A program made the position numbers and the translations under genes. 64,000 bases of DNA from Fidelibacterota bacterium (GTDB taxonomy: Bacteria > Fidelibacterota > Marinisomatia > Marinisomatales > TCS55), in contig JASLML010000001.1 of the NCBI GenBank assembly GCA_030746535.1, forward strand, positions 368 through 64,367, given 5' to 3'. Below are positions 8,672 through 35,667 of this stretch, in pieces. Each line of letters starts with the position of its first letter. Positions within the stretch are counted from its first letter, which is position 1. The notes under the pieces were generated by a model. It saw only the letters and a program-made list of their open reading frames with translations. It had not been told where the DNA came from and searched no databases.

Positions 8672-9556
8672 ATGAAGTATTATGTACTAGTAAATCCGAA
8701 AGGCGGCATAAAGAAAGGTACGGGAATTCTTCAGAATGTCCGTCCGTTGTTTAATGCAGCAAATGCCGAGCTCAATGTGATTGAAACGGAATACGCTGGC
8801 CACGGAAGGGAATTGGCAAAGACGCTCGATTTTGAGGGATACGACGGACTTTGTGCTGTCGGAGGAGACGGCACTATGCATGAAATCATCAACGGACTGA
8901 TGAACCGTGCTGACGGAAGAAAAATTCCCATCGGACTGATAACCGGAGGAACAGGAAATTCATTTATGCATGATGTTGACTGTCTTGATCCGAAACAGGC
9001 AGTACAGCGAATTCTAACAGATAAACGAAGGACGATCGATGTAGCGAAGGTCGATGCCAGCGGCGAGATTATTTATGCATTTAATATTGTTGGTTGGGGT
9101 ATGCCTACAGATATCAATGAAATTGCTGAAAAACTAAGATGGCTGGGAGGACAACGGTATAATATTGCATCATTGATCGAGATTATGAGGTTCCGACAAA
9201 GGCTAGCAACATTGGAGTTAGAAGGAAATATTAAGGAAGGGGATTTTGGATTTGTTATCGGCTGCAATACGATTCACACAGGCCGCGGAATGAAAATGGC
9301 TCCACATGCCCAACTGAATGATGGATTGATTGATGTAATAGTAGCTCATAAATCGAGCCGGATAAAGCTATTAAAAATGTTTCCAAAAGTATTTTCTGGC
9401 GAACACATCGATGATCCGATCGTGGAATACCATCAAGTGAAGAAATTCTCCATTATACCCCAAGCTCAGGATAAATTAAATATAGATGGAGAAATTATCG
9501 GAAGTACACCGGTTAATGTTGAAGTTCTTCAAAGTGCTGTAGAGGTGCTTGTATAA
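8672..9556 (+). CDS. Diacylglycerol/lipid kinase family protein (YegS/BmrU-like)
   Basis: Catalytic-domain motifs VNPKGG..., GGDGTMHEIINGL and GTGNSF. Confidence 0.8.
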   Translation: MKYYVLVNPKGGIKKGTGILQNVRPLFNAANAELNVIETEYAGHGRELAKTLDFEGYDGLCAVGGDGTMHEIINGLMNRADGRKIPIGLITGGTGNSFMHDVDCLDPKQAVQRILTDKRRTIDVAKVDASGEIIYAFNIVGWGMPTDINEIAEKLRWLGGQRYNIASLIEIMRFRQRLATLELEGNIKEGDFGFVIGCNTIHTGRGMKMAPHAQLNDGLIDVIVAHKSSRIKLLKMFPKVFSGEHIDDPIVEYHQVKKFSIIPQAQDKLNIDGEIIGSTPVNVEVLQSAVEVLV

Positions 9557-9621
9557 TTGGAATCGCCGTTGTTTAGAAACATCTGACCGAATTATCTTCC
9601 GGACTCATTTTTACCAGAATC

Positions 9622-10437
9622 ATGGCAGAAAAAGGCAAAGGCAGAACCTTAATTAATTTCATCGGTATTCCGGCGATCCTTGCGCTCATTTGGGCAGGAG
9701 GCGTGTATTTTGCCTTGTTTATCGGGATCGCAGTTCTTCTTGCGATGAATGATTTTTACAATCTTTATGCAGGAAAAGGATATTTTCCTTCCAAGATTCT
9801 CGGAATGGGGGGCGGAATTTTGGTTCTCATTTTTTATAATTTTAATCTGGAAATATCTTCGCCTGAATTAATTGGCTCGATCCTTGTTTTTACATTTTTG
9901 ACGATGTTTTCTGAGCTTTTCCGCAAACGGGATCATTTTCTCGAAAATGTCACAATGACACTTTTCGGTATCCTTTATATTTCTGTATCGCTTGGATCTC
10001 TGATTCCTATGCGCGAGGCGGATACTGCGAACGGAACATTGTTAACATCGGCTGTTATTCTTGCAGTCTGGTTCTGTGATTCTGCCGCAATGGGTGCCGG
10101 TATGCTGTGGGGAAAAACAAAAATCGTTCCTTGGGCAAGCCCGAAAAAATCTGTACAAGGATCGCTGGGAGGATTGGCTGCTTCTTTCTGCGTATACACC
10201 ATTTTCAAATCGGGGAATATCGGCGGACTTGCATTATCCTGGACGGATGTTGCAGTATTATCGCTGATTGCGGGTTTCCTCGGCCAGATTGGTGATTTTA
10301 TGGAATCCTGGATGAAGCGTCAGGCAGGTGTGAAAGACAGTGGATCTTTCCTGATGGGGCACGGCGGAGTGCTGGACAGGTTTGATTCAATGATATTTGC
10401 CGCACCGCTTTCCTATGTTTATTTTTTGATTAGATAA
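9622..10437 (+). CDS. cdsA: Phosphatidate cytidylyltransferase
   Basis: Polytopic membrane protein with the CdsA C-terminal signature SWMKRQAGVKDSGSFLMGHGGVLDRFDS. Confidence 0.85.
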   Translation: MAEKGKGRTLINFIGIPAILALIWAGGVYFALFIGIAVLLAMNDFYNLYAGKGYFPSKILGMGGGILVLIFYNFNLEISSPELIGSILVFTFLTMFSELFRKRDHFLENVTMTLFGILYISVSLGSLIPMREADTANGTLLTSAVILAVWFCDSAAMGAGMLWGKTKIVPWASPKKSVQGSLGGLAASFCVYTIFKSGNIGGLALSWTDVAVLSLIAGFLGQIGDFMESWMKRQAGVKDSGSFLMGHGGVLDRFDSMIFAAPLSYVYFLIR

Positions 10438-10442
10438 GAAAG

Positions 10443-12260
10443 ATGGAATTACGAAGCATACTTGCCACTGACTGCGGAAGCACAACGACCAAAGCAATTC
10501 TGATAGAAAAAGTTGACGGTGAATTTCGCCTGAAGGTTCGCGGAGAAGCGCCAACAACCGTCGAAGCACCATTTGAGGATGTTACCAAAGGTGTTTTGAA
10601 CGCTGTTATGGAAGTGGAGGAACTGGCTGGAAGGAAACTGTTGGATGGCAATACAATCATTACTCCGTTGAACGGCGATACAGGCGTGGACATTTATATT
10701 TCAACGAGCTCAGCCGGAGGCGGACTGCAGATGATGGTGGCGGGTGTAGTAAAATCCATGACCGGTGAAAGTGCAGAACGGGCAGCATTGGGAGCCGGAT
10801 CCATTGTAATGGATGTATTGGCTTCGAATGATGGCAGAAAGCCGCATGAAAAGATAACTCGAATTCGTCAATTGCGTCCTGATATGATCTTATTATCAGG
10901 TGGTATTGATGGTGGTACAACAAAACATGTTGTAGAACTTGCAGAAATATTGGCTGCAGCAAATCCAAAACCACGTCTGGGACAGAATTATAAACTTCCC
11001 ATCATATATGCAGGAAATAATAAGGCAACGGATAAGATTCAGGATACCCTGGGTAACATCGCAGATTTGGATATAACAGAAAATATACGCCCGGTCCTTG
11101 AGCAGGAGAATCTTAAACCATCCCGTGATAAGATACATGATCTATTCATGGAGCACGTAATGCAACAGGCTCCAGGATATAAGAAATTGATGTCTTGGAC
11201 AGATGCGCCGATTATGCCCACTCCCGGCGCAGTCGGTGCCTTAATTGAAATGGTTGCTGAAAAAGAGAATATTTCCGTGGTTGGTGTAGATATCGGTGGA
11301 GCAACCACAGATATTTTTTCAGTATTTCAAAATCAGTTTAACCGAACAGTAAGCGCGAATCTGGGAATGAGCTATTCGATTTGCAATGTTTTTGCGGAAG
11401 CGGGTTTGGAGAATGTGCTGCGCTGGGTACCTTTTGATATTGATGATAAAGAATTGACCAATAGAATCGGCAACAAAATGATTCGCCCCACAACAGTTCC
11501 ACAGAGTTTGGAAGAACTGGTCATCGAGCAGGCAATTGCCCGGGAAGCACTCCGCCTTTCATTTATTCAGCATAAGGAATTTGCAGTGAATCTGAAAGGT
11601 GTACAAAAAGAGCGGACGATATCTGATGCATTTGAACAATCTGAATCCGGAGAATCGTTGGTGGATATGATGGAACTGGATCTTCTTGTTGGTTCTGGTG
11701 GCGTATTGTCTCATGCACCCCGCCGTGAACAGTCTGCTAGAATGTTAATCGATAGTTTTTTACCGGAAGGAATTACGCAACTGGCTGTAGATTCTATTTT
11801 CATGATGCCTCAGCTTGGTGTCATGGCAAACATTGAGAAAGAAGAGTTGGCAGAAGATGCCCGAACAGCTGCGTTGGAAGTTTTTGAAAAAGACTGCTTA
11901 ATTCGCCTCGGAACCTGTATTGCTCCATCTGGTGATGCAAAACAAAATTCTACAGTTTTAACGGCTCAATTAACCATGCCGGATGGGAATACAGAATCTC
12001 ATACAATACAGTTCGGAGATCTCGTTATGATTGAAGCTCCTTATGAGCCAATAAAGGCAAAATTGACTCCGGGGAAGGGAATGGACATTGGTGCAGGAAA
12101 AAATGAAATCATCGAATCCACGATCTACGGCGGTGTCGTTGGCATAATATTTGATGGTCGCGGCAGACCATTGAATATATCTACGGATTCTGAACAGCGA
12201 ATTTCTGATCTTTCAAAATGGTCCAAAGCTCTAAATGAATATCCAAAATTAAAGGTATAA
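10443..12260 (+). CDS. GlmL/MutL-like ASKHA-fold (actin/Hsp70 superfamily) ATPase, function unknown
   Basis: N-terminal phosphate-1 motif LATDCGSTTTKAILIEK and second nucleotide motif VGVDIGGATTDIFSVF, with GG-rich SSAGGGLQMMVAG and LLSGGIDGG. It resembles the glutamate mutase accessory protein GlmL family. 605 aa. Confidence 0.65.
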   Translation: MELRSILATDCGSTTTKAILIEKVDGEFRLKVRGEAPTTVEAPFEDVTKGVLNAVMEVEELAGRKLLDGNTIITPLNGDTGVDIYISTSSAGGGLQMMVAGVVKSMTGESAERAALGAGSIVMDVLASNDGRKPHEKITRIRQLRPDMILLSGGIDGGTTKHVVELAEILAAANPKPRLGQNYKLPIIYAGNNKATDKIQDTLGNIADLDITENIRPVLEQENLKPSRDKIHDLFMEHVMQQAPGYKKLMSWTDAPIMPTPGAVGALIEMVAEKENISVVGVDIGGATTDIFSVFQNQFNRTVSANLGMSYSICNVFAEAGLENVLRWVPFDIDDKELTNRIGNKMIRPTTVPQSLEELVIEQAIAREALRLSFIQHKEFAVNLKGVQKERTISDAFEQSESGESLVDMMELDLLVGSGGVLSHAPRREQSARMLIDSFLPEGITQLAVDSIFMMPQLGVMANIEKEELAEDARTAALEVFEKDCLIRLGTCIAPSGDAKQNSTVLTAQLTMPDGNTESHTIQFGDLVMIEAPYEPIKAKLTPGKGMDIGAGKNEIIESTIYGGVVGIIFDGRGRPLNISTDSEQRISDLSKWSKALNEYPKLKV

Positions 12261-12261
12261 G

Positions 12262-13389
12262 ATGGCACACGCATATACACCCGGTTTAAAGGTGCTGCAC
12301 GAAACGAAGATTGATAAGGAGCGCCGTTTGCCTTTGAAAGGTGAAGTGGTCGTTGAAAAGGGAACATCTGTGAATCCGGATGATATAGTTGCAAAAACAG
12401 ATCTCCCTGGAAACGTACAAATGGTAAATGTTGCCAACATACTCAATATTGATGCTCAGGACATCAATGAGGTTATGGACGTTAATGAAGGTGATACGGT
12501 GACTAAAGGCCAGCAGATCGCTGAAACGAAAGGTCTTTTTGGTTTATTTAAATCCAATGTGGAATCACCCGTTGATGGCACACTTGAGGTCATTTCAGAT
12601 ACAACTGGGCAAGTTGTATTGCGTGAACCTCCCATTCCTGTAGAAATTGATGCATACATGCGTGGTACAATTAAGGATGTGCTGCCAGAGGAGGGCGTGA
12701 TCATAGAATCTGATGGTGTATTCATCCAGGGTATTTTTGGAATCGGAGGAGAAAGCCGGGGAAATATTGTTGTGGCAACTCAAAATCGCGAAGGAGAAAT
12801 CACTGAAGAGATGATCACCAGCGAACATACTGGGAAAATCTTAGTCGGCGGTTCCTTTATCAGTTTGAAAGCCTATAAGAAAGCCATTCAAATGCAGGTA
12901 GCTGGTGTAGTTGTAGGCGGTTTCAATTATTTTGACCTTGAAGATATTTTGGGATATACGCTGGGTGTGGCAATAACCGGTTCGGAAGAACTAGCCACTT
13001 CTTTGATCATTACCGAAGGCTATGGTAAAATTCGCATGGGGCAAAGAACTTTTGATCTGCTGAAAGAACATAGCGGCAAATTCGCTTCGATAAATGGCGC
13101 CACCCAGATCCGTGCCGGGGTGATCCGTCCAGAGATCGTTATTTCATTAGCCAAAGAAGAATTAAAAGGTGATTCAAAAGATGTGGATGCATCTGAAGGA
13201 ATTCGAGAAGGAAGCTTGGTTCGTGTTATCAGGGCACCCCATTTTGGTCGTATTGGTAAAGTGGTGGAATTGACTCCAGAACTCCGCCAGATGGAATCTG
13301 AAACAATGGTTCGTATAGCAATTATTGAGATTGATGGAAAAAATGTCGAGATTCCACGGTCAAATTTAGAAATGGTAGAGACTGATTAA
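12262..13389 (+). CDS. Hypothetical protein with barrel-sandwich-hybrid (lipoyl/biotinyl/EIIA-like) motif and KOW/SH3-like C-terminus
   Basis: VNEGDTVTKGQQIAETKGLF....VESPVDGTLEVI matches the hybrid-motif pattern GDxVxxGxxI...xPxxGxV. The C-terminus GSLVRVIRAPHFGRIGKVVEL looks KOW-like. The start is 1 nt after the upstream stop. Confidence 0.5.
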   Translation: MAHAYTPGLKVLHETKIDKERRLPLKGEVVVEKGTSVNPDDIVAKTDLPGNVQMVNVANILNIDAQDINEVMDVNEGDTVTKGQQIAETKGLFGLFKSNVESPVDGTLEVISDTTGQVVLREPPIPVEIDAYMRGTIKDVLPEEGVIIESDGVFIQGIFGIGGESRGNIVVATQNREGEITEEMITSEHTGKILVGGSFISLKAYKKAIQMQVAGVVVGGFNYFDLEDILGYTLGVAITGSEELATSLIITEGYGKIRMGQRTFDLLKEHSGKFASINGATQIRAGVIRPEIVISLAKEELKGDSKDVDASEGIREGSLVRVIRAPHFGRIGKVVELTPELRQMESETMVRIAIIEIDGKNVEIPRSNLEMVETD

Positions 13390-13390
13390 C

Positions 13391-13717
13391 TTGGAAACAG
13401 CTGTCAAAACAAACATTCCTCAATCCTTATCTGAACAAGATATTCAATTCATCACTCGGATCGCAAAGCGTATACAAAGGTCAGGTTTTATTACTCCGGC
13501 CGTTTTCTTTTTAGAGATGGGCAAACCCTTGGCACTTTTGGGCAGTCATGCCATGGTTTTTTTCGGTCCTATCATCAATGCATTTATTCAAGCGGACGGC
13601 TATTACAGGGCCGCAGAGATTTTTGAAAAACCAGACAATATTGAATTTCTCATATCTGAAATAGAGCGTCTGGACAAAGAAGACTCTGAAATAAGAGGAG
13701 ATACCATTGAAAGATAA
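13391..13717 (+). CDS. Small hypothetical protein with one hydrophobic segment
   Basis: TTG start 1 nt after the upstream stop. Hydrophobic core ITPAVFFLEMGKPLALLGSHAMVFFGPIINAFI. No family recognised. Confidence 0.5.
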   Translation: METAVKTNIPQSLSEQDIQFITRIAKRIQRSGFITPAVFFLEMGKPLALLGSHAMVFFGPIINAFIQADGYYRAAEIFEKPDNIEFLISEIERLDKEDSEIRGDTIER

Positions 13718-14570
13718 ACAATTCTGGTTGGTCTTGGGTGGAATAACCTTGGCATTCCTGATATATTGGTTTGCAGGCCATCCTTTTTTCAACCACGATC
13801 GGATCGTCATGTTTATCGCCATTGTGGCTATGAGTGCAACACTGTTGTATTTCATACGAATGGCTGAACGAGGCGAAGATTTTTATTTACGTCCCATTCC
13901 CGGGCTGAAAGCTGTAGAAGAAGCAGTGGGTCGTTCAACAGAGATGGGAAAACCCGTATTGTACGTTCCCGGTATTATGGATATGGACCAGGTGGAAACG
14001 GTGGCAGGTGTTATTGTATTAGGACACGTTGCCAAGATGACCGCCAGGTATGAAACGTCCCTTAATGTGCCGGTGTCCCGTTCTATTGTTATGAAAGCTG
14101 CCAGAGAGGCATGCCGCGAATCCTACATGGTGGAAGGCCGCCCTGATATGTTCAACGAAGATATGGTACACTATTTGACCGATGACCAGTTTGCCTATGC
14201 AGCAGGTGTCAACGGCATCATGGTCAGGGAGAAACCTGCAGCCTGTTTGTATATGGGAAAATTCTATGCTGAATCCCTGATCCTGGCAGAGACTGGTAAT
14301 TCCATCGGTGCCATCCAGATCGCCGGAACAGCATCCCAAGCACAGATCCCATTCTTTGTGACAGCCTGTGATTATACATTGATCGGTGAAGAATTTTTCG
14401 CCGCCAGTGCATATCTTTCCAAAAAACCAGAACTAATTGGCGGAGTGAAAGGTCAAGATATGATCAAAGCGGCTGTGTTAACTCTTATCGTTGTTTCAGT
14501 TATTCTACGGATCCTTTATGAAACATGGGGGATAGGATTTGATATTATTAAACTTTTAACGGTGCAGTAG
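13707..14570 (+). CDS. Hypothetical membrane protein (N-terminal TMs, ~170-aa soluble domain, C-terminal TM)
   Basis: TTG start preceded by AAGAGGAG SD at a 6-nt spacing. Hydrophobic segments at both ends. No family recognised. Confidence 0.6.
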   Translation: MKDKQFWLVLGGITLAFLIYWFAGHPFFNHDRIVMFIAIVAMSATLLYFIRMAERGEDFYLRPIPGLKAVEEAVGRSTEMGKPVLYVPGIMDMDQVETVAGVIVLGHVAKMTARYETSLNVPVSRSIVMKAAREACRESYMVEGRPDMFNEDMVHYLTDDQFAYAAGVNGIMVREKPAACLYMGKFYAESLILAETGNSIGAIQIAGTASQAQIPFFVTACDYTLIGEEFFAASAYLSKKPELIGGVKGQDMIKAAVLTLIVVSVILRILYETWGIGFDIIKLLTVQ

Positions 14571-14580
14571 GAGGAGTGGA

Positions 14581-15405
14581 ATGATCTGGAAACGACAAAT
14601 ACCCATTCTCATTGTTGCTGTGGTTGGTACATTAACGCTTTTTGGCTGGTTCATTGAAGAGCCAAACATTGAAGCATTTGTGAATGATGATGCAACACAG
14701 TGGTATGATATTCTGGCCAGTTTTGCCATTATCCTTGGTGGATTAAACCTCATAAAGCTGCAGATGCAGAAGGTGGCCAAACAGCGAATAGGATGGCAAT
14801 ATAGCTTAGTGGCAATTGGTGGATTCATTTTCGCTATTACGGCGGGATTCATTATCAAAGGTGTGGATGATTCCGTGGCACTATGGGGCGCTCACGTGAC
14901 CACAGAAGGTTCAATGTTCAAATGGATGTTCGATTATATGTTTGCTCCCATGTCAGCGACCATGTTCTCTCTGCTGGCATTCTTTGTGGCCTCGGCATCA
15001 TTTAGAGCATTCAGGATACGAAACTTTGAAGCTACACTTTTATTAGTAGCGGGAATCATCATTATGATCGGCCGTGTTCCATTGGGGAGTGTGATCTCTT
15101 CATGGTTTGTCATGTATCTGTTGGTGCTCATTGCCGGAATTGGTGTGAATACATGGAAGAAGGATAAGATGATCACATTCGGAACAGTTGCTGTTGGGTT
15201 GGCTGCAGTTACCATTGCCGGAATGATGATGGGTTGGCCTGTGAATGAACCGGGAATATTCTATCTTCCCGTATTGCAGGAGTGGATCTATTACTATCCA
15301 AATGTTGCCGGCGCAAGAGCCATCATGATCGGTATCGGACTTGGAATCTTTGCGACATCCATCCGGTACATCCTTGGAATTGAAAAATCGTACATAGGAG
15401 AGTGA
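14581..15405 (+). CDS. Hypothetical polytopic membrane protein
   Basis: AGGAGGAG SD upstream. About 7 hydrophobic spans by eye. No transporter signature recognised. Confidence 0.65.
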   Translation: MIWKRQIPILIVAVVGTLTLFGWFIEEPNIEAFVNDDATQWYDILASFAIILGGLNLIKLQMQKVAKQRIGWQYSLVAIGGFIFAITAGFIIKGVDDSVALWGAHVTTEGSMFKWMFDYMFAPMSATMFSLLAFFVASASFRAFRIRNFEATLLLVAGIIIMIGRVPLGSVISSWFVMYLLVLIAGIGVNTWKKDKMITFGTVAVGLAAVTIAGMMMGWPVNEPGIFYLPVLQEWIYYYPNVAGARAIMIGIGLGIFATSIRYILGIEKSYIGE

Positions 15406-16253
15406 TCATGAAAGGTTTACAAGATTTTATATTGAAATTAGGACAGATCGATCGAAGATGGATCTTCCTTGCCATTGCTGTGGTTGTATTTATTCCTATC
15501 CTTAACCCCATTGGTATGCCCATCCGAGCAACAGATACGACGAAAGTTGTATTTGATGCGATTGAGGATCTTCCGGCAAATTCGAAAGTGTTGGTTTCTG
15601 TGGAATATAGTCCTAGTACCAAACCGGAAAATCATCCCATGACCATAAGTATCTTGCGTCATTTATTCAAAAATGATCACAAAGTATTTGTGACTTGCTT
15701 GTGGCCTGATGGTCAGTTTATGGCTCAGGAAGCATTGGAAGAGGTCGCTGTTGGTGAATTCAACAAGATATATGGTGAGGATTATGTTTTTCTGGGCTTC
15801 AGGCCGGGAAATGAAGCAGTTGTAAAGGGGATCGTCAGCAATATCCGGAAATTATATACAGTGGATGTTCATCAAACAAAGGTGGATGAAATACCACTCA
15901 TGAAAGATGTGAATAAATTCAGCGATTTTGATTTTCTATTTTCATCATCCGCCGGTTTCCCGGGAACCATTGAGTGGGTTCAGTATGCAGCAGATCCCAC
16001 AGGAGTTCCTATGAGTTCCGGAGTAACGTCCATCCAGGTGAATGAGGTCATGCCTTATGTGCAATCAGGACAGATGAAGGGTGTATTGGCAGGAATGCCG
16101 GGAGCAGCAGAATATGAAGCTCTCATTGGACAAAAGGGATTTGCTACCAGCGGAATGGATGCACAATCCATAGCTCACCTGGTCATTGTGTTATTCATCA
16201 TTTTAGGTAATTTGGCTTTCTTCGTCGAACGTCAAAGATCCAAGAAGTATTAA
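15402..16253 (+). CDS. Hypothetical bitopic membrane protein (TM at each end, ~220-aa central domain)
   Basis: GTG start overlaps the upstream TGA (GTGA), or an ATG at 15408 could be used. The architecture resembles the 13707..14570 product. Confidence 0.6.
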   Translation: MIMKGLQDFILKLGQIDRRWIFLAIAVVVFIPILNPIGMPIRATDTTKVVFDAIEDLPANSKVLVSVEYSPSTKPENHPMTISILRHLFKNDHKVFVTCLWPDGQFMAQEALEEVAVGEFNKIYGEDYVFLGFRPGNEAVVKGIVSNIRKLYTVDVHQTKVDEIPLMKDVNKFSDFDFLFSSSAGFPGTIEWVQYAADPTGVPMSSGVTSIQVNEVMPYVQSGQMKGVLAGMPGAAEYEALIGQKGFATSGMDAQSIAHLVIVLFIILGNLAFFVERQRSKKY

Positions 16254-16263
16254 GGAGTAAGAA

Positions 16264-17100
16264 ATGGAAACTACAGTCATTTTAGGTGCATGGGTTGCAG
16301 CATTTCTTACGCTGGGTATTTTCTCATACCTGTATAAGGATAATCCATTTTATAAGATCGCTGAACATTTATTTGTAGGTATTTCAGCAGGATACTGGAT
16401 ATCTATTTTCTTTTGGACACAGATTCAACCCAACCTGTTTGGCCGGCTTTGGCCGTCATCGGAATACAGCGATTCATTCTGGTACTCGATCTATAATGGT
16501 CTTGGCTTTCTGTCTTCGGCCGTTTTTCCTGAAGGTGGTATTGATAAAGGTCATGGGCTGGACCCTATTTATATCATACCACTAATATTGGGAGTCATGA
16601 TGCTCTTGAGTTTGATCCCCAAGGTTAACTGGTTTGCCCGCTGGGGTATTGCTTATACGGTGGGAATGGCAGCGGGCCTCAGGGCTTACGGCTATTTGAA
16701 CTCAAATGTAATCGGCCAGATAAAGGGAACAGCTGCAAACCTGGCTGACCCCAATTTACCGTTCTTTAGTTTGACTTCTCCATCCACGTTCAACGGTATT
16801 GTGATCCTTGTAGGGACCATAACGGGATTGATCTACTTTTATTTTTCCAAAGAACATAAAGGTGTCTTGGGAAAAGCATCCCGAATTGGGATTTATTTCC
16901 TAATGATCAGTTTTGGAGCATCTTTTGGTTTTGCGGTTATGGGTCGTATTTCTCTCTTAATTGGCCGGTTTGTTGATCTGATCAAGTTCAGCGGCAGTGA
17001 TTATCATCATGCGCCGATTTGGATTCTGGTATTCATGCTGATTATTTTAGGATACGGAGCTTTTAGAGATAAGGGTAGCAATACTACTCAATCGGCTTAA
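16264..17100 (+). CDS. Hypothetical polytopic membrane protein
   Basis: AAGGAG SD upstream. About 7-8 hydrophobic spans by eye. No family recognised. Confidence 0.65.
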   Translation: METTVILGAWVAAFLTLGIFSYLYKDNPFYKIAEHLFVGISAGYWISIFFWTQIQPNLFGRLWPSSEYSDSFWYSIYNGLGFLSSAVFPEGGIDKGHGLDPIYIIPLILGVMMLLSLIPKVNWFARWGIAYTVGMAAGLRAYGYLNSNVIGQIKGTAANLADPNLPFFSLTSPSTFNGIVILVGTITGLIYFYFSKEHKGVLGKASRIGIYFLMISFGASFGFAVMGRISLLIGRFVDLIKFSGSDYHHAPIWILVFMLIILGYGAFRDKGSNTTQSA

Positions 17101-18002
17101 TGGCCGCGATTTCTTCTTTTCTTTCTGTTGATTCTCTATCTGTTTCATACAATATAAATGGACAGCAAACGCCTGTTGTAGATAACGTTTCCTTATCTCA
17201 GGATAAGGGTGAAATAATTGGGTTAGTGGGTGAATCTGGCTGCGGAAAGTCTCAGCTTGCTTTGGCATTGGCGGAATTAGCCTCGAAGCAGGCAAATGTG
17301 CATATGGAAGCATCGGTTTTGCCAAAGAATCCTGCCATTATTTTTCAGGATCCTCAAACGAGCCTTAACCCGGTCATAAAAATTGGGAAGCAAATTGAAG
17401 AAGCGGTGGCTCAAGAAATACCTGATAAAAAGGCAAGCATTCTGGAATTACTGGAACAGGTTGGAATAGATGATCCTAATTCCAGAATAAATCAATATCC
17501 GCACGAATTTTCCGGCGGTATGCAGCAGCGCGCTCTCATCGCGATGGCGCTCGCACAGAACCCCGATCTATTAATTGCAGATGAGCCGACCACAGCACTT
17601 GATGTAACCATTCAAAAACAGATTTTAGATTTGCTGAAATCGCTGAATAAAGAAAAGAATCTGGCAATTTTATTTATCACGCATGATTTGGTTCTACTCC
17701 GAGAATTTGCGGACAAAATATTGGTAATGTATGCAGGGAAAATTATTGAATCGGGGACAGCTAAGAATATTTTCGAAAATCCGAAACATCCTTACACGAA
17801 GGCATTAATCAGTGTATCATCCCTTGAAAAAAAGGAAAACAGATTCAATGCAATCCCCGGATCGGTTCCTTTACCCGCGGAATATCCATCTGGCTGCCGG
17901 TTTCATCCGCGGTGCGACCTTGCTGTAGATTCTTGCAAATCATCGCTGCCTGAATTTCAAGATATTGAGATGCATTCTTGGGCCTGCACTGAGGTGAATT
18001 AA
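17100..18002 (+). CDS. ABC transporter ATP-binding protein, oligopeptide/dipeptide (OppD/DppD) type
   Basis: Walker A GESGCGKS, signature FSGGMQQR, Walker [14 protein letters not shown]-loop ITHDL, and the Opp-type C-terminal extension HPYTKALI...GCRFHPRC...C...C. The start overlaps the upstream stop (TAATG). Confidence 0.85.
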
Positions 18003-18076: not shown

Positions 18077-19600
18077 ATGGATTTATTGAAATCACTTGAA
18101 ATCAATGATGTAAATCCCGGGACTTGCTACGGACAGGGAACATGGGCAGATTCCGGTAAATCGGATTTACTTGAATCGTGTAATCCTGCAACGGGCGAAC
18201 TGCTTGCATCCGTAATGCAGGCGACTGAAAAAGATGTGGAAACCGTCATAGCAGATTCCGTGAAAGCTTTTAAGGAATGGAGAACAGTTCCTGCTCCCGT
18301 CCGCGGACAGCTCGTCCGGGAAATGGGAGACGCACTTCGTGAAAACAAGAATGCTCTCGGCACACTTGTTTCCGTGGAAATGGGAAAGATAAAACAGGAA
18401 GGCGACGGTGAAGTTCAGGAGATGATTGATATTGCGGATTTTGCGGTTGGGCAGTCACGGATGCTTTACGGCAAAACGATGCATTCGGAACGGCCGGATC
18501 ACCGCATGTATGAACAGTGGCATCCTATGGGACCGGTAGCTGTCATTACTGCATTCAATTTTCCGGTAGCGGTCTGGGCGTGGAACGCCTTCATTGCGGC
18601 AATCGCCGGCGATACGGTCATTTGGAAACCGTCATCTTCCACGCCTCTGTGTGCGGTCGCTGTTCAACATATTTGTAATAAAGTACTCGAAAAAAACGGA
18701 TACAAAGGCATTTTCAATCTTGTGATAGGAAAAGGTTCTGTTGTCGGTGAAAAACTTCTGCACGATCCGCGAATTCCTCTCGTATCATTTACAGGCTCAA
18801 CAAACATGGGAAGGCATGTCAGCGAATCGGTAGCGAAGCGCTTCGGCAATACCATTCTTGAGTTGGGCGGAAATAACGCAATAATCGTTGATGAAACTGC
18901 CGACATGGATATGGTCATTCCGGCAGTAGTCTTCGGTGCTGTTGGAACCGCCGGACAGAGGTGCACTTCCACGCGCCGTGTGATTATTCATGAGTCGCAA
19001 TATGACACATTGATACAAAGATTAACGCATGTATATCAACAGGTAAAAATCGGCGATCCAACGAAAGAGTCCACACTGATGGGCCCACTAGTGAATGCGT
19101 CCGCAGTTTCAGATTATAATGCAGCGCTTGGCAGAATTAAAGAACTCGGCGGAGAAATTGTGTACGGCGGTAAGGAAATAGAAGGGGATGGCCATTTTGT
19201 AGAACCGACCATCGTGAAAGCGGAAGGTGACTGGGATATAGTTCATCACGAAACATTCGCGCCTATTTTATACATTATTCCATACAAAACCATGGATGAA
19301 GCAATCGAAATTCACAACAGTGTTCCTCAGGGACTTTCGTCATCGCTGTTTACAACGCGGATGCAGAACATGGAGTCATTCCTTTCAGCCCGCGGATCTG
19401 ACTGCGGCATCGCGAATATCAATATCGGCACATCCGGCGCGGAAATAGGCGGCGCATTCGGCGGCGAAAAGGAAACAGGAGGCGGCCGTGAATCGGGATC
19501 CGATTCATGGAAACAGTACATGAGAAGACAAACAAACACCATCAACTGGAGCAGCGATTTACCGCTGGCCCAGGGAATCACATTTGACGTAAAGGAGTAG
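18077..19600 (+). CDS. ALDH7-type aldehyde dehydrogenase (alpha-aminoadipic semialdehyde / piperideine-6-carboxylate dehydrogenase)
   Basis: ELGGNNAIIV and GTAGQRCTSTRR in the catalytic region, and an N-terminus typical of the antiquitin/AmaB family. It sits next to a lysine 6-aminotransferase gene. Confidence 0.7.
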   Translation: MDLLKSLEINDVNPGTCYGQGTWADSGKSDLLESCNPATGELLASVMQATEKDVETVIADSVKAFKEWRTVPAPVRGQLVREMGDALRENKNALGTLVSVEMGKIKQEGDGEVQEMIDIADFAVGQSRMLYGKTMHSERPDHRMYEQWHPMGPVAVITAFNFPVAVWAWNAFIAAIAGDTVIWKPSSSTPLCAVAVQHICNKVLEKNGYKGIFNLVIGKGSVVGEKLLHDPRIPLVSFTGSTNMGRHVSESVAKRFGNTILELGGNNAIIVDETADMDMVIPAVVFGAVGTAGQRCTSTRRVIIHESQYDTLIQRLTHVYQQVKIGDPTKESTLMGPLVNASAVSDYNAALGRIKELGGEIVYGGKEIEGDGHFVEPTIVKAEGDWDIVHHETFAPILYIIPYKTMDEAIEIHNSVPQGLSSSLFTTRMQNMESFLSARGSDCGIANINIGTSGAEIGGAFGGEKETGGGRESGSDSWKQYMRRQTNTINWSSDLPLAQGITFDVKE

Positions 19601-19607
19601 ACGAAAA

Positions 19608-20909
19608 ATGACGGCACCAGCACAGGTACACGAAGCAATCGGAAAACACATGCTTGCAGACGGAATGGACCCTGTAGTTGATCTTGAAAAGAGTTATGGA
19701 TCTTGGATTGTGGATGCAAGAGACGGAAAGGAATATCTTGATCTTTTTTCGATGTTTGCATCTATGTCTGTCGGATACAATCACCCATATTTACTCGAAC
19801 ACAAAGAAGATCTCGCTGTCGCCGCACTCAATAAACCGACAAATTCGGATATCTATTCAACACAGATGGCGGATTTCGTATCCACGATGGGCCGCGTCGC
19901 TCAGCCGGATTATCTTCCGTATGCATTCTACATTGAAGGCGGTGCGCTTGGGGTGGAAAATGCGCTGAAGACTGCTTTCGACTGGAAATCAAAACTTAAC
20001 AGGAAAAACGGGAAATCCGTGGAAGGATCGAAGGTAATTCATTTTGAACAGTGTTTTCACGGAAGAACGGGATATACACTCAGCCTGACCGATTCCCACG
20101 ATAAAAGAAAAACAGAGCATTTTCCTAAATTTGACTGGCCCCGGATTTCGAATCCATACATTCATTCAGCGAATGATGATGATATCGAAAATCGTGAAGC
20201 GAAAGCGATTGACGAAATAAAAGCAGTTTTGGCTGAATCCGCCGATGAAGTTGCCTGCATTATCATTGAACCGATTCAGGGAGAAGGCGGTGACAACCAT
20301 TATCGTCCTCAGTTTTTAAAAGCCCTGAGAACGCTGGCTGATGAAAATGACTTTTTGCTCATTTACGATGAAGTACAAACGGGAATTGCGATAACGGGCG
20401 AGATGTGGTGCCATCAGCATTTTGGTGAAGAAGCGCGTCCCGATCTTATAAGTTTCGGGAAAAAAACGCAGGTATGCGGAACGTTTGCAGGAAATAGGTT
20501 AGACGAGGTTGATGCACACGTGTTCAAAGAATCCAGCAGACTTAATTCTACGTGGGGTGGAAATTTAACTGACATGGTGCGATTCAAATTATATCTCGAA
20601 ATCATTGAAAATGAAAAACTCGTAAACAATGCTGAAGAAATGGGTAAGCATTTGTTTCAGAGTCTTAATACTCTGGAGTCGAAATATGCAGAAAAAATTT
20701 CGTACGCAAGAGGCAGAGGATTATTCTGCGCATTTGACTGTAATTCAGCGGAAGATCGAGATAAACTGGCAGGACTCATTCAGGAAGAAGGGGCCATAGT
20801 ACTTGGATCCGGAGAAAGGACAATTCGTTTTCGTCCTCATTTAAATGTCACTTCGGATGAAATTGACAGCGGAATTGAAATGATTTCCGCTGCATTGGAA
20901 CATTTGTGA
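19608..20909 (+). CDS. lat: L-lysine 6-aminotransferase (lysine epsilon-aminotransferase), class-III PLP enzyme
   Basis: The N-terminal pattern VHEAIGKHMLADGMDPVVDLEKSYGSWIVDARDGKEYLDLFSMFAS...GYNHP resembles characterised LAT enzymes. DEVQTG and SFGKK (PLP lysine) are class-III motifs. Confidence 0.7.
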   Translation: MTAPAQVHEAIGKHMLADGMDPVVDLEKSYGSWIVDARDGKEYLDLFSMFASMSVGYNHPYLLEHKEDLAVAALNKPTNSDIYSTQMADFVSTMGRVAQPDYLPYAFYIEGGALGVENALKTAFDWKSKLNRKNGKSVEGSKVIHFEQCFHGRTGYTLSLTDSHDKRKTEHFPKFDWPRISNPYIHSANDDDIENREAKAIDEIKAVLAESADEVACIIIEPIQGEGGDNHYRPQFLKALRTLADENDFLLIYDEVQTGIAITGEMWCHQHFGEEARPDLISFGKKTQVCGTFAGNRLDEVDAHVFKESSRLNSTWGGNLTDMVRFKLYLEIIENEKLVNNAEEMGKHLFQSLNTLESKYAEKISYARGRGLFCAFDCNSAEDRDKLAGLIQEEGAIVLGSGERTIRFRPHLNVTSDEIDSGIEMISAALEHL

Positions 20910-32215: not shown

Positions 32216-33203
32216 TTCACGTTCATTTAAGTTTGTCGCCTATATGCTGCTGCTGATAACCATCGGAACGATAGGCTTTTTTATTATCGGGGGAGATCAA
32301 TGGAGCATCATTGACAGCCTTTATATGACGCTCATAACGCTTTCTACCGTTGGATTCAGCGAAGTGCATCCATTGGATGAATCCGGCAGGGTTTGGGCGA
32401 TGATCCTCATTATATTTGGCGTAAGCGGATTTGCATACGTTATTTCACAATTTGGAACCGAATTATTGGAATTCGGTCATTACCGGAGTAGAAAAATGAA
32501 GAAACATATCGAAAAACTGGAAAATCATTATATCGTTTGCGGTTACGGCAGAATGGGAGCAGTGATCGCGGCGGAATTATCCGATAAAGAGATTCCGTTT
32601 GTGGTAATCGAAAATAATGAAAGTAAAATCGAAAAAGTGCAGGAAAAGGGATACAATTTTATATACGATGATGCAACACTCGAAGAAACACTTTTGGAAG
32701 CGGGAATTAAATCCGCCAGCGGTGTTGTGGTGACGCTGAATACCGATCAGGACAATTTATTCGTTACCATGTCGGTACGCACGCTGAATACTGATGCATT
32801 CCTTGTGTCGCGTTACAGTATGAGTGATACAGCGGCAAAATTAACGCGTGCGGGCGCTAACAAGGTGGTAAATCCGTACGTTGCCGGCGGACATAAAATG
32901 TCTGAACTGCTCATCAGTCCGTTTCTTGAAGACAGTGTTTCCATTAGGACTCCGCAGCAGAATATCATCGATTTAGCCATTGATGAAATGAAAATAAAAA
33001 ATATTCCTAAATATGACGGTGTTTCAATCAAAGAATCCGGATTACGTGAAGAATTTCACGTGAGTGTTGTTGGAATTGTAGATGAGGATGGGAATGTGAG
33101 CATCAACCCAAAACCTGATACTGTTATGCAAAAATCTCATACAGTTATGCTGATAGGAGAAAAGGAACATTTAATAAAACTATTAGATTCGCTGGATTTG
33201 TGA
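32202..33203 (+). CDS. Two-TM potassium-channel-type protein with cytoplasmic RCK/TrkA-N and TrkA-C domains (atypical filter TVGFSE)
   Basis: TM1, then pore helix and filter SLYMTLITLSTVGFSEV, then TM2, then the Rossmann motif IVCGYGRMG. Confidence 0.8.
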   Translation: MNLFNSRSFKFVAYMLLLITIGTIGFFIIGGDQWSIIDSLYMTLITLSTVGFSEVHPLDESGRVWAMILIIFGVSGFAYVISQFGTELLEFGHYRSRKMKKHIEKLENHYIVCGYGRMGAVIAAELSDKEIPFVVIENNESKIEKVQEKGYNFIYDDATLEETLLEAGIKSASGVVVTLNTDQDNLFVTMSVRTLNTDAFLVSRYSMSDTAAKLTRAGANKVVNPYVAGGHKMSELLISPFLEDSVSIRTPQQNIIDLAIDEMKIKNIPKYDGVSIKESGLREEFHVSVVGIVDEDGNVSINPKPDTVMQKSHTVMLIGEKEHLIKLLDSLDL

Positions 33204-33252
33204 TAATTGCACATAAGATATGTTATGTATAATTAGATATAATATAAAATAA

Positions 33253-35667
33253 TTATTTCACGACGAAGTTTACCAATCGTCCCTTAACATATATTTCTTT
33301 AATTATAGTTTTCCCCTTTAAATATTCCTGAATTCTGTTTTCTTCCTTTGCGGATGCAATGATTACCTTTTCAACGGTGTCTGCAGCACAATCGATACTT
33401 CCGCGAAGTTTTCCGTTCACCTGAACTGCTATAGTGATCATATCTTCTTTTGCGAGGGTTTCGTCAAAATTTGGCCATGATTGATATGCTATTGTTTTTT
33501 CGTGTCCAAATTGTTCCCATATTTCTTCAGCTGCATGCGGTATAAACGGCGCCAGCAGCATTGTGAATGTTTCAATAACGGACTTGTTAATAGTTTCCAG
33601 GGTTGTTAAATGATTTACAAAAATCATCATTTGGGAAATTGCCGTATTAAAATCAAGATTTTCGATATCATCGGTCACTTTTTTAATGGTTTGATGCAAT
33701 AATTTAACGGTTTCATCATTTGGTGTATCTTCATTAATATTTTCATTTAAGCCGTCTTCATCAAAAAGTTTACCCCACAATTTATTTATGAACCGTGAGC
33801 AACCCTGTAGTCCGGTAGTTGACCACGGTTTTGCCTTATCAAGAGGTCCCATAAACATTTCATAAAGCCGCATGGAATCCGCACCGAATTCTTCAACTAT
33901 TTCATCCGGATTAATTACGTTTCCGCGGGATTTGCTCATTTTTGATCCGTCGCTGCCGAGAATCATTCCCTGATTGAATAATTTTTGAAAGGGTTCTTTA
34001 GTGGATACATGTCCCAAATCATATAAAACATGGTGCCAGAACCGAGCATATAATAAATGAAGTACAGCATGTTCCTGTCCGCCAATATACAAATCTACCG
34101 GCATCCAATATTTTTCCTTCCCGGAATCCCAACCGGTCTCTGAATTGCCTGGATCGATGTAGCGTAAATAATACCAGCAGGATCCCGCCCATTGCGGCAT
34201 TGTATGCGTTTCGCGGATTCCAATAACGGATCCGTTCTCATCTTTTATCTCAACCCAGTCAGAAATGGTGGCAAGGGGTGATTCCCCTGTTCCAGAAGGT
34301 TCATATTTTTCCACTTCCGGAAGTTTCACCGGAAGGTCATTCTCAGGAACAGCCTCTGTTTCGCCGTTTTTATGAATAAGTGGAAACGGCTCACCCCAAT
34401 ATCTTTGTCGTGAAAAAAGCCAGTCACGTAATTTGTAATTGACCTGCTTCCTCCCTGTCCCGTTTTTTTCAAGAGATTCAATCATGGCCTTTATGGACTC
34501 TTCTACATGCATTCCATTCAGAAAATCACTGTTTATCGCCAGACCGTCACCCAAGTAGGCTTCTCCGTCAAAATCTTCGGGAGGCTGTACAGTTCTGATA
34601 ATTGGCAAATCAAATTCCGTAGCGAATTCCCAATCTCTCTGATCCTGCCCCGGGACTGCCATGATTGCGCCTGTTCCATAAGACATTAAAACATAATCAG
34701 CGATCCATATGGGAATCTTTTGATTATTAACAGGGTTTACTGCAAAACTTCCCGTAAAAACGCCGGTTTTGTCTTTATTCAGCTCTCCCCTTTCCAAATC
34801 TGATTTTCGGCTTGCGGCTTCCTGATAATCATTCACAGCTTTCTTTTGATCATCTATTGTCAGCGGATCAGCAAGTGGATGCTCCGGTGAAAGTACCATG
34901 TAGGTCGCGCCAAAAAGAGTATCCGGACGAGTTGTGAATACACGGATAACGTCCTCTTTCCCATCCACCTTAAAGTTCACATCCGCACCTTCAGACCGTC
35001 CAATCCAGTTCCTTTGAAGATCTTTTACATGCTCTGGCCAATCAAGATTATCAAGTCCTTCAAGAAGAGATTCTGCGTAATCAGTGATTTTCAGCATCCA
35101 CTGTTTCATTGGAACTCGCTGCACGGGATGTCCCCCGCGTTCAGATTTCCCATCTATTACTTCTTCATTCGCTAAAACTGTTTTCAGTTCGGGACACCAA
35201 TTCACTGGAACTTCCGCCTGGTAAGCCAATCCTTTGTTGTAAAGCTGAAGAAAAATCCACTGTGTCCATTTATAATAGTCCGGATCCGTCGTATTGATTT
35301 CTCTATCCCAATCGTATGAAAATCCAAGCATTTTAATCTGACGTTTAAAATTATTGATATTCTTCTCTGTTGTTTCCGCAGGATGTGTTCCGGTTTGAAT
35401 GGCGTATTGTTCCGCTGGCAGACCAAACGCATCCCATCCCATCGGATGCAGCACATTGAATCCCTTCATTCGTTTATATCGGGCTACAATATCGGTAGCG
35501 ATATAACCGAGCGGATGGCCTACATGGAGTCCAGAACCGGATGGATACGGAAACATGTCCAGCACATAATATTTAGGTTTTTCTGACAAATCATTTGTTT
35601 TGAATGTTTTGTTTTCATCCCAGAATGATTGCCATTTGGCTTCTAATGTTTTATGATCGTATGTCAT
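33253..35667 (-). CDS. leuS: Leucine--tRNA ligase
   Basis: [18 protein letters not shown] (HIGH), the KMSKSRGN (KMSKS) motif and the CP1 editing domain. 804 aa. Confidence 0.95.

Follow-up and report, generated by a model that had tools for sequence, protein, structure and literature searches.

The locus examined here raises the question of whether eight consecutive genes on the plus strand, lying between positions 10443 and 18002 of a 64-kb stretch of DNA from a Marinimicrobia (SAR406/Fidelibacterota) bacterium, encode a single system and, if so, what that system does. We refer to the whole 64-kb stretch as the window and to the eight genes as g1 to g8. A first-pass annotation of the sequence had presented them as an eight-gene module with no described counterpart. 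Comparison with loci from other genomes upheld this description for g1-g7, whose synteny extends across phyla and through several gene orders, but not for g8, whose presence is an insertion or deletion within Marinimicrobia. Together, the data indicate that g1-g7 very probably constitute one conserved system of the inner membrane that includes a cytoplasmic ATPase pair.

Exploring the distribution of DUF6754, the family to which g4 belongs, we found 2,111 clusters at 50% identity with E≤1e-3 and 784 with E≤1e-30, and at least 592 DUF6754 loci in GTDB species representatives. All open reading frames (ORFs) of the best 80 of these at least 592 loci were searched with the eight window proteins. 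The best 80 carry the labels Marinimicrobia, Zixibacteria, WOR-3, Stahlbacteria, Eisenbacteria, Fermentibacteria/Aegiribacteria, Ignavibacteriales, Phycisphaerae and other Planctomycetes, and Rifleibacterium; single metagenome-assembled genomes labelled Bacillota, Puniceispirillum and Lentisphaeria are also among them, and these labels may be binning errors. In 61 of the 66 loci with sufficient sequence, representing about ten phylum-level lineages, g5, g6 and g7 were all found at most 4.5 kb from g4, and four of the five exceptions still carry g5-g7 at a greater distance from g4. The pair g1 and g2 shares a 20-kb locus with the g4-g7 cassette in 34 of 54 cases. The order of the genes differs between lineages. 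Marinimicrobia have g1-g2-g3-g4-g5-g6-g7; Fermentibacteria, Aegiribacteria and Phycisphaerae have g0-g3-g1-g2-g4-g5-g6-g7, where g0 is an extra conserved gene; Rifleibacterium-like genomes have g4-g5-g6-g7-g3-g1-g2; in loci labelled Zixibacteria, Ignavibacteriales or Calditrichaeota one or more cassettes are divergent from g1-x-g2; and the remaining loci have g0-g3-g4..g7 or g4..g7 alone. The proximity of g1-g2-g3 to the cassette thus survives at least four different gene orders, and the flanking genes vary by lineage (cdsA/yegS with aldh/lat, glycine cleavage, acyl-CoA dehydrogenase or ribosomal protein genes). Linkage that persists through rearrangement while the flanks change is the classical sign of a functional unit, and we concluded that g1-g7 behave as one.

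The opposing explanation is that unrelated genes came to lie side by side in a compact, co-directional block, and the window itself offers grounds for it. All genes between 4.7 and 23.9 kb point in the same direction and clearly unrelated genes overlap there too, and a scan of 8-24.5 kb for promoter- and terminator-like sites returned counts equal to those of shuffled sequence and was uninformative. The eight ORFs are present exactly as first listed, with the same coordinates and strand, and the junctions, start codons, Shine-Dalgarno-like sequences and overlaps were recovered at all seven gene pairs (Table 1). With all of the block tightly packed and promoter- and terminator-like sites as frequent as in shuffled sequence, spacing alone proves nothing, a caveat that the first-pass annotation had itself attached to its proposal. 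Gene-neighbourhood conservation across genomes, which it had suggested as a check on fortuitous adjacency, gave synteny of g4-g7 with g1-g2(-g3) in attendance, and these links persist across phyla, rearrangements and changing flanks. The probability of chance association is accordingly minute, and judged by gene order in the compared genomes it is excluded for g1-g7; for g8 alone it is still a live explanation.

Table 1. Genes of the locus in window coordinates, with their predicted products and the junction of each gene with the next (aa, amino acids; nt, nucleotides; TM, transmembrane).
Gene	Coordinates	Strand	Predicted product	Junction with next gene
g1	10443..12260	+	605-aa cytoplasmic ASKHA-fold ATPase, GlmL/MutL subfamily, with ~135-aa C-terminal extension	gap of 1 nt
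g2	12262..13389	+	375 aa, cytoplasmic; N-terminal barrel-sandwich hybrid, middle alpha/beta domain, C-terminal KOW/SH3-like domain	gap of 1 nt; g3 starts at TTG
g3	13391..13717	+	small protein (~100 aa), one weakly hydrophobic segment	overlap of 11 nt; g4 starts at TTG, AAGAGGAG upstream
g4	13707..14570	+	DUF6754: TM hairpin, ~200-aa cytoplasmic Rossmann-like domain, C-terminal TM	gap of 10 nt, contains AGGAGGAG
g5	14581..15405	+	polytopic, 6-TM core plus two extra TMs in Marinimicrobia (about eight TMs here)	overlap GTGA
g6	15402..16253	+	N-terminal TM, ~215-aa periplasmic alpha/beta domain, C-terminal TM (TM prediction, positive-inside rule)	gap of 10 nt, contains AAGGAG
g7	16264..17100	+	polytopic, about 6 TM	overlap TAATG
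g8	17100..18002	+	OppD/DppD-type ABC ATPase, ABC_tran plus oligo_HPY tail	

Analysis of g4-g7 indicated that they form the membrane core, with some 16 TM helices or more, one conserved cytoplasmic domain, in g4, and one periplasmic domain, in g6. g4 matches the Pfam family DUF6754 (PF20539), which is catalogued but uncharacterised, with 387.7 bits against a cut-off of 27, and is 54-59% identical to its Zixibacteria and Planctomycetes orthologues. A protein with 100% identity to g4 is known from a metagenome-assembled genome of Candidatus Marinimicrobia. The earlier statement that only two products of the locus were recognisable and that none of the membrane proteins could be assigned therefore fails for g4 and stands for g5-g7. 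Searches with 32 diverse members of each of these three found no consistent Pfam or NCBIfam family and no membership of a well-characterised transporter or respiratory family, and their profiles retrieved nothing from the sequences of the PDB below E=0.1. Hydropathy agreed with the soluble domains of ~200 residues first ascribed to g4 and g6 and with the polytopic nature of g5 and g7; the description of g4 and g6 as bitopic had to be revised, both being anchored by TM segments at both ends. The orientation of g4 can be read from its homologues. The window protein is a minimal version, lacking the ectodomain that most homologues carry: in about 120 of 150 DUF6754 representatives the N-terminus is extended by more than 100 residues, the longest extensions starting with signal or lipoprotein signal peptides, and Pfam detected FN3 repeats or PQQ/BamB-like beta-propellers in 4 of 10 long representatives. 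Because these extensions are signal-peptide ectodomains, the segment before the DUF6754 TM is predicted to be extracytoplasmic and the conserved domain cytoplasmic. The positive-inside rule agrees: by it the g4 domain is cytoplasmic, the g6 domain is periplasmic and both termini of g6 are inside the cell.

An AlphaFold2 model of g4, with a predicted local distance difference test score (pLDDT) of 71.7, shows an alpha/beta domain between TM helices. Foldseek of this model against the PDB gave no match at E≤1e-3 and only generic Rossmann-like folds; weak matches to corrinoid-related proteins were judged to be noise. No natural fusion of DUF6754 with g5, g6 or g7 was found among the 150 representatives. 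Of the other subunits, g5 has the conserved motif ATMFALLAFFVASASYRAFR, g6 is kept in 73 loci, and g7 has the conserved polar residues D26, N27, E34, Q152, S195, R228 and R235, with no conserved cysteines in either g5 or g7. Pairwise comparison within g1-g7 detected no homology, for instance between a duplicated g4 and g6 or g5 and g7 (hhalign probabilities at most 2.2%).

The first gene of the module encodes its putative motor. g1 aligns with the whole Pfam MutL model (PF13941) over residues 6-468 with 413.1 bits against a cut-off of 27 (E=1.7e-123). Its nucleotide-binding motifs are intact (D10-x-G-S-T-T-T-K17, D283-I-G-G-A-T-T-D290 and G417-S-G-G). Since these are the phosphate-1, phosphate-2 and adenosine motifs of the ASKHA fold, g1 is likely to be an active ATPase. 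Across 39 cross-phylum orthologues 229 of the 605 positions are at least 95% identical, and mean identity over residues 1-470 is 77%. Hydropathy predicted zero TM segments. At E≤0.1 a Pfam scan returned only MutL, Hydantoinase_A, Hydant_A_N and BcrAD_BadFG, with no PilM/FtsA family, and a single-sequence search of the PDB gave no match below E=0.1. With GlmL/MutL, the accessory proteins of B12-dependent glutamate mutase and ornithine aminomutase, g1 shares the two-lobed ASKHA signature, both phosphate-binding motifs and the adenosine motif. It differs from them in its extra C-terminal domain of ~135 residues, in falling under every NCBIfam GlmL cut-off (NF040745 GlmL, 215.5 against 475; NF040744 Or-4, 202.5 against 600; TIGR01319, 161.3 against 204.05), and in being coupled to g2 and a four-protein membrane cassette with no mutase genes nearby. 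The first-pass annotation had likewise noted the lack of a B12 mutase near g1, and within the annotated flanks of the related, syntenic locus L001 (~6.7 kb upstream and 7.5 kb downstream) this was confirmed; mutase and B12-binding Pfam families were absent from these flanks and from loci L082-L093, the remainder of the 64-kb window being outside the Pfam scan.

This family membership invites the idea of a membrane-anchored enzyme complex, in which g1 would be a GlmL-type ATP-dependent reactivase or chaperone for a cofactor enzyme made of the DUF6754 domain and g2 and acting in amino-acid-related metabolism. The named NCBIfam models of the GlmL family are accessory proteins of glutamate and ornithine degradation, and the conservation of the DUF6754 domain is enzyme-like, with many invariant acidic and glycine residues and a Rossmann-like fold. 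The flanks also include amino-acid catabolic genes, namely aldh and lat in Marinimicrobia and glycine cleavage in Fermentibacteria. These flanks differ between lineages, however, none of the module proteins gave a match to a mutase, B12-binding or other cofactor domain, and the idea offers no role for the two conserved polytopic proteins or for the periplasmic domain. We consider such an enzyme complex improbable.

g2 is found beside or close to g1 in every locus that has both, and some lineages insert one or two genes between them. Its mean column identity is 73% (54 sequences) and its hydropathy shows zero TM segments. Source annotations call it 'hypothetical' or mislabel it as NusG or BCCP. 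Pfam matches were RnfC_N, marginal at 25.9 bits against a cut-off of 25.6, NqrA_N at 19.1 bits, Biotin_lipoyl, and a C-terminal KOW. A score of 15.8 against 245.95 left g2 below the cut-off of the NCBIfam rnfC model (TIGR01945), and PDB searches with the single sequence and with a profile gave nothing below E=0.1. The AlphaFold2 model (pLDDT 86.2) has three domains, and Foldseek matched them only one at a time, to the KOW of NusG/Spt5/L24, to the biotinyl-type barrel sandwich of BCCP and to RraA-like proteins; no whole-chain analogue was found among the matches, and neither NqrA nor RnfC was retrieved. A whole-chain NqrA/RnfC-like identity for g2 is thus unsupported, the model having given domain-level matches only. 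A broader resemblance to Na+-NQR and Rnf exists, in that g2 shares with NqrA/RnfC the N-terminal barrel-sandwich and the order of barrel-sandwich, alpha/beta and small beta domain, and its partners likewise include two ~6-TM subunits and a TM-anchored periplasmic protein. Unlike those complexes, the module has no flavin, Fe-S or NADH motifs and its membrane proteins do not match Rnf-Nqr families.

Among the genes inserted between g1 and g2, one in Zixibacteria-type loci (L085, L086, L088, L091 and L092) encodes a ~250-aa protein with a signal peptide, a C-terminal TM anchor and no family match. Pairs of HEPN/nucleotidyltransferase genes, toxin-antitoxin-like, were seen in L093 between g1/g2 and inside the third cassette (9262-9973 and 19428-20155).

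The small protein g3 was found in 46 of 81 loci with E values from 1e-9 to 9e-48, and it has no Pfam or NCBIfam family match. Its start is uncertain, giving 108 aa from the TTG at 13391 and 97 aa in the gene call of the 86%-identical relative in L001. Outside Marinimicrobia g3 is located upstream of g1, often directly after g0, a conserved protein of ~130 aa with two TM helices followed by a small soluble domain. g0, which precedes g3, is present in L023, L026, L027, L044, L045, L049, L052, L061, L066, L067, L069, L075, L079 and L082; it has no Pfam or NCBIfam match and is absent from the window.

Only g1, at the level of the family, and g4, as a domain of unknown function, thus fall in catalogued families, and by its predicted composition g1-g7 matches no characterised system. 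Defence-system models of PADLOC did not match g1-g7 and gave only generic ABC-ATPase cross-matches to g8. In the literature searched, nothing mentioned DUF6754 or PF13941, or linked a GlmL-type protein with Tol, Exb or membrane systems. Because only two of its families are catalogued, no relevant literature was found and no characterised system has the same composition, we judged the module to be new.

g8 has a different standing. It carries ABC_tran (91.1 bits) and oligo_HPY (70.4 bits), has zero TM segments by hydropathy and does not reach the equivalog cut-offs of NCBIfam (284.5 against 541). Its Walker A, Q-loop, signature, Walker B and H-loop motifs are all in place, and compared with an OppD it is short of about 18 residues of the ABC beta-subdomain, in the stretch from Walker A to the Q-loop. 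Only seven of the Marinimicrobia-type loci have it after g7; in the others of this type aldh or lat comes directly after g7 on the same conserved backbone. g8 is thus an insertion or deletion between g7 and the aldehyde dehydrogenase gene within Marinimicrobia, absent outside the phylum. From this distribution g8 is no core part of the module but a lineage-specific, optional neighbour, for which a functional link in the window genome is possible. As the only ABC nucleotide-binding domain within the 64-kb window, with g7 and the aldehyde dehydrogenase as its neighbours, g8 is an orphan here; the earlier remark that no OppB/C-type permease, second ATPase or binding protein accompanies it was borne out, g5 and g7 matching no BPD_transp_1. 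Permease-less ABC ATPases adjoin the cassette in three lineages, represented by g8 itself, by L048 and by L063/L068. The ABC ATPase after g7 in L008 was considered as a fourth orphan case and rejected, since its own ABC-2 permease follows.

These ATPases raise the possibility that g8 is the motor in the window genome, with g4-g7 providing the membrane moiety of a new ABC-type transporter, while g1/g2 would serve elsewhere, in substrate processing or assembly. The stop codon of g7 overlaps the start codon of g8, neither permease nor partner ATPase nor binding protein for g8 is encoded within the 64 kb, and Marinimicrobia with as little as 65-70% identity in g4 (L014, L019 and L021) still have g8 in this position. 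The recurrence of permease-less ATPases beside the cassette points the same way, and g5 and g7, with 6+6 TM segments, have the size of the membrane domains of a type I importer. On the other hand, most Marinimicrobia loci lack g8 and other phyla have no ABC ATPase save in L048 and L063/L068, the adjacent ATPases belong to different ABC subfamilies, and the one in L008 is accounted for by its own permease. The missing beta-subdomain residues also speak against a motor function, as does the lack in g5 and g7 of an EAA-like coupling motif or a match to an ABC membrane-domain family. On balance, g8 is quite unlikely to drive the system.

The loci with other permease-less ATPases have features of their own. 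In L048 (5880-8291) a B12-binding radical-SAM gene, a 100-aa ORF and a permease-less ATPase of LolD/MacB/FtsE type lie directly upstream of a PQQ-propeller-DUF6754 gene, and no g1-g2 is present within 10 kb. In L063 (430-4088) and L068 (2226-5787) SBP_bac_5, OppD and OppF, without OppB/OppC, lie directly upstream of g4, and this block lies between a Wzy_C/TPR gene and a Wzz/GNVR chain-length-determinant gene.

To consider what g1-g7 might do, we examined cassette copies and neighbouring genes. Beside a single g1-g2 pair, tandem cassettes occur in two copies in L082, L084, L085, L086, L088, L089 and L091 and in three copies in L093, and the DUF6754 N-terminal extension varies in length from copy to copy. 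The only recurrent neighbours from outside the module are ExbB/TolQ-family systems. In Fermentibacteria and Aegiribacteria, g7 is immediately followed by a TonB-dependent receptor and exbB-exbD-exbD-tonB; in WOR-3 and Stahlbacteria this set is located ~3 kb downstream. In loci labelled Zixibacteria, Ignavibacteriales or 'FCB group', tolQ-tolR-tolA-tolB-pal-cpoB is found downstream of g1-(x)-g2, and L087 has g1-(x)-g2 upstream of Tol-Pal although no cassette is close by. A TolQ/ExbB homologue is absent from the window. Genes for secreted M4 (thermolysin-like) peptidases adjoin the module in two genomes (L082, 11357-13873; L084, 5539-7446). One of these two peptidases carries a Por_Secre_tail, a type IX secretion signal.

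From these data we tentatively favour, at somewhat less than an even chance, the reading of g1-g7 as an ATP-driven inner-membrane transport machine. We do so because exchangeable paralogous cassettes are found per ATPase pair, because g5 and g7 are two ~6-TM subunits with conserved polar or charged residues, and because the neighbours are the missing pieces of TonB-dependent uptake, namely receptor, TonB-ExbBD, binding protein and permease-less ATPases; the adjoining M4 peptidase genes are counted as well. In such a machine g1 and g2 would dock on the cytoplasmic DUF6754 domain of g4, and ATP hydrolysis by g1 would drive, or chemically trap, the passage of a substrate through the helices of g5 and g7, with the periplasmic domain of g6 as the outward-facing receiver. 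Its most likely role would be the inner-membrane uptake of material brought in by TonB-dependent outer-membrane receptors, peptides or amino-acid-derived compounds being the best guess for the substrates. Paralogous cassettes would each lend the common ATPase pair a specificity of their own, much like the S-components of ECF transporters, and g8 may be an accessory ABC ATPase of some Marinimicrobia only. The likeness to ECF and Opp/Dpp transporters lies in the several paralogous membrane cassettes per ATPase pair and in the two ~6-TM subunits, to which may be added the occasional adjacent OppD/F and family-5 binding protein without permeases and the TonB-dependent receptor systems nearby. The conserved ATPase of the module is nevertheless of the ASKHA fold and not ABC, ABC ATPases are missing from most loci, and g5 and g7 match neither EcfT/S nor BPD_transp_1 nor another transporter family.

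Several points weigh against transport. To our knowledge, no ASKHA-fold ATPase powers a transporter. Neither g5 nor g7 resembles any transporter family in searches with 32 members of each, and internal repeats in g4-g7 were not convincing, reaching a probability of at most 10%. The TonB, ABC and peptidase associations are found in a minority of lineages and each may be a single evolutionary event, and Zixibacteria-type loci adjoin Tol-Pal and not TonB. Because 20 of 54 loci have no g1-g2 within 10 kb, the membrane core may also function without the ATPase pair. No riboswitch or other RNA element that could give a clue to the substrate was found upstream of the module in the window and 14 loci.

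The Tol-Pal neighbourhood leads to the main rival of transport, which is also closest to the idea of the first-pass annotation, an envelope-maintenance or trans-envelope machine. Here the membrane core, through the g6 domain and through the FN3 or beta-propeller ectodomains found in g4 homologues, would connect the inner membrane with the wall or the outer membrane, and g1/g2 would serve as an ATP-dependent organiser on the cytoplasmic side, acting together with Tol-Pal in division or in the homeostasis of the outer membrane. The position of g1-(x)-g2 directly upstream of tolQ-tolR-tolA-tolB-pal-cpoB, in L087 even in the absence of a nearby cassette, is consistent with this, as is the fact that ExbB/TolQ-family systems are the only recurrent outside neighbours. 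Carriers of the module are essentially all diderm lineages, the ectodomains of g4 homologues are BamB/TolB-like beta-propellers or FN3 repeats, and Wzy_C and Wzz genes flank the module in L063/L068. Actin-fold proteins that act on bitopic membrane partners have precedents in PilM-PilN, GspL-GspM and FtsA. Like PilM-PilN-PilO, GspL-GspM and FtsA, the module encodes a cytoplasmic ASKHA protein together with membrane proteins that have periplasmic domains, the operon logic of an 'alignment platform'. Unlike in these systems, two of the partners are polytopic and another has a large conserved cytoplasmic domain, g1 has no sequence relationship to the known platform proteins, and pilus, secretin or divisome genes are not adjacent to the module.

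The comparison with Tol-Pal and TonB-ExbB-ExbD is similarly divided. Neighbours of the module in three lineages, these are, like it, diderm inner-membrane complexes with periplasm-facing parts. The module, however, has an ATPase, whereas Tol and Ton run on the proton-motive force, and comparison of the module families with 17-18 neighbouring Tol/Exb proteins detected no homology, to TolQ/ExbB, TolR/ExbD or TolA/TonB (hhalign probabilities at most 2%). The lack of homology to Tol, Exb or PilM proteins counts against an envelope role, and so does the window itself, where g4 has no ectodomain at all and no TolQ/ExbB homologue is encoded. The gaps between g2 and tolQ measure 200-540 bp, so that the two may be separate transcription units, perhaps in one lineage, and duplication or triplication of the cassette would be unusual for a structural machine. 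An envelope role for g1-g7 is a serious but rather unlikely alternative to transport.

Two observations concern other parts of the DNA analysed. Around 33000-34500 of the window a change in the sign of GC skew coincides with a flip of gene orientation from plus to minus, and cumulative GC skew is maximal near 34 kb, which looks like a convergence or terminus-like point of replication. On a WOR-3 chromosome (L036, 3653-4021, minus strand) an isolated partial match to small-subunit rRNA (model positions 39-400 of 1533, 328 bits) lies amid protein-coding genes.

It is possible, though short of probable, that these genes represent a new class of ATP-driven inner-membrane machine, in which an ASKHA GlmL-like ATPase and its barrel-sandwich/KOW partner would energise an exchangeable four-subunit cassette in place of an ABC, P-type or AAA+ motor. 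Such a machine would act in uptake downstream of TonB-dependent receptors or in envelope upkeep, and it would be widespread in bacteria of the FCB and PVC groups, including SAR406. The module is conserved in sequence across phyla at a level typical of core machinery, while for six of its seven proteins there is neither a functional annotation nor a solved relative, nor any paper in the literature searched. Its carriers include SAR406/Marinimicrobia, which are among the most abundant bacteria of the deep ocean, as well as Zixibacteria, WOR-3, Fermentibacteria, Ignavibacteriales-labelled genomes and Planctomycetes. The limits of the module, its topology and its candidate partners are now clear enough to allow experimental work-up and the prediction of complexes. 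If an ASKHA ATPase does drive a membrane process here, this would be a new principle of energy coupling in membrane biology, and the GlmL/MutL family would gain a role beyond B12 mutases.

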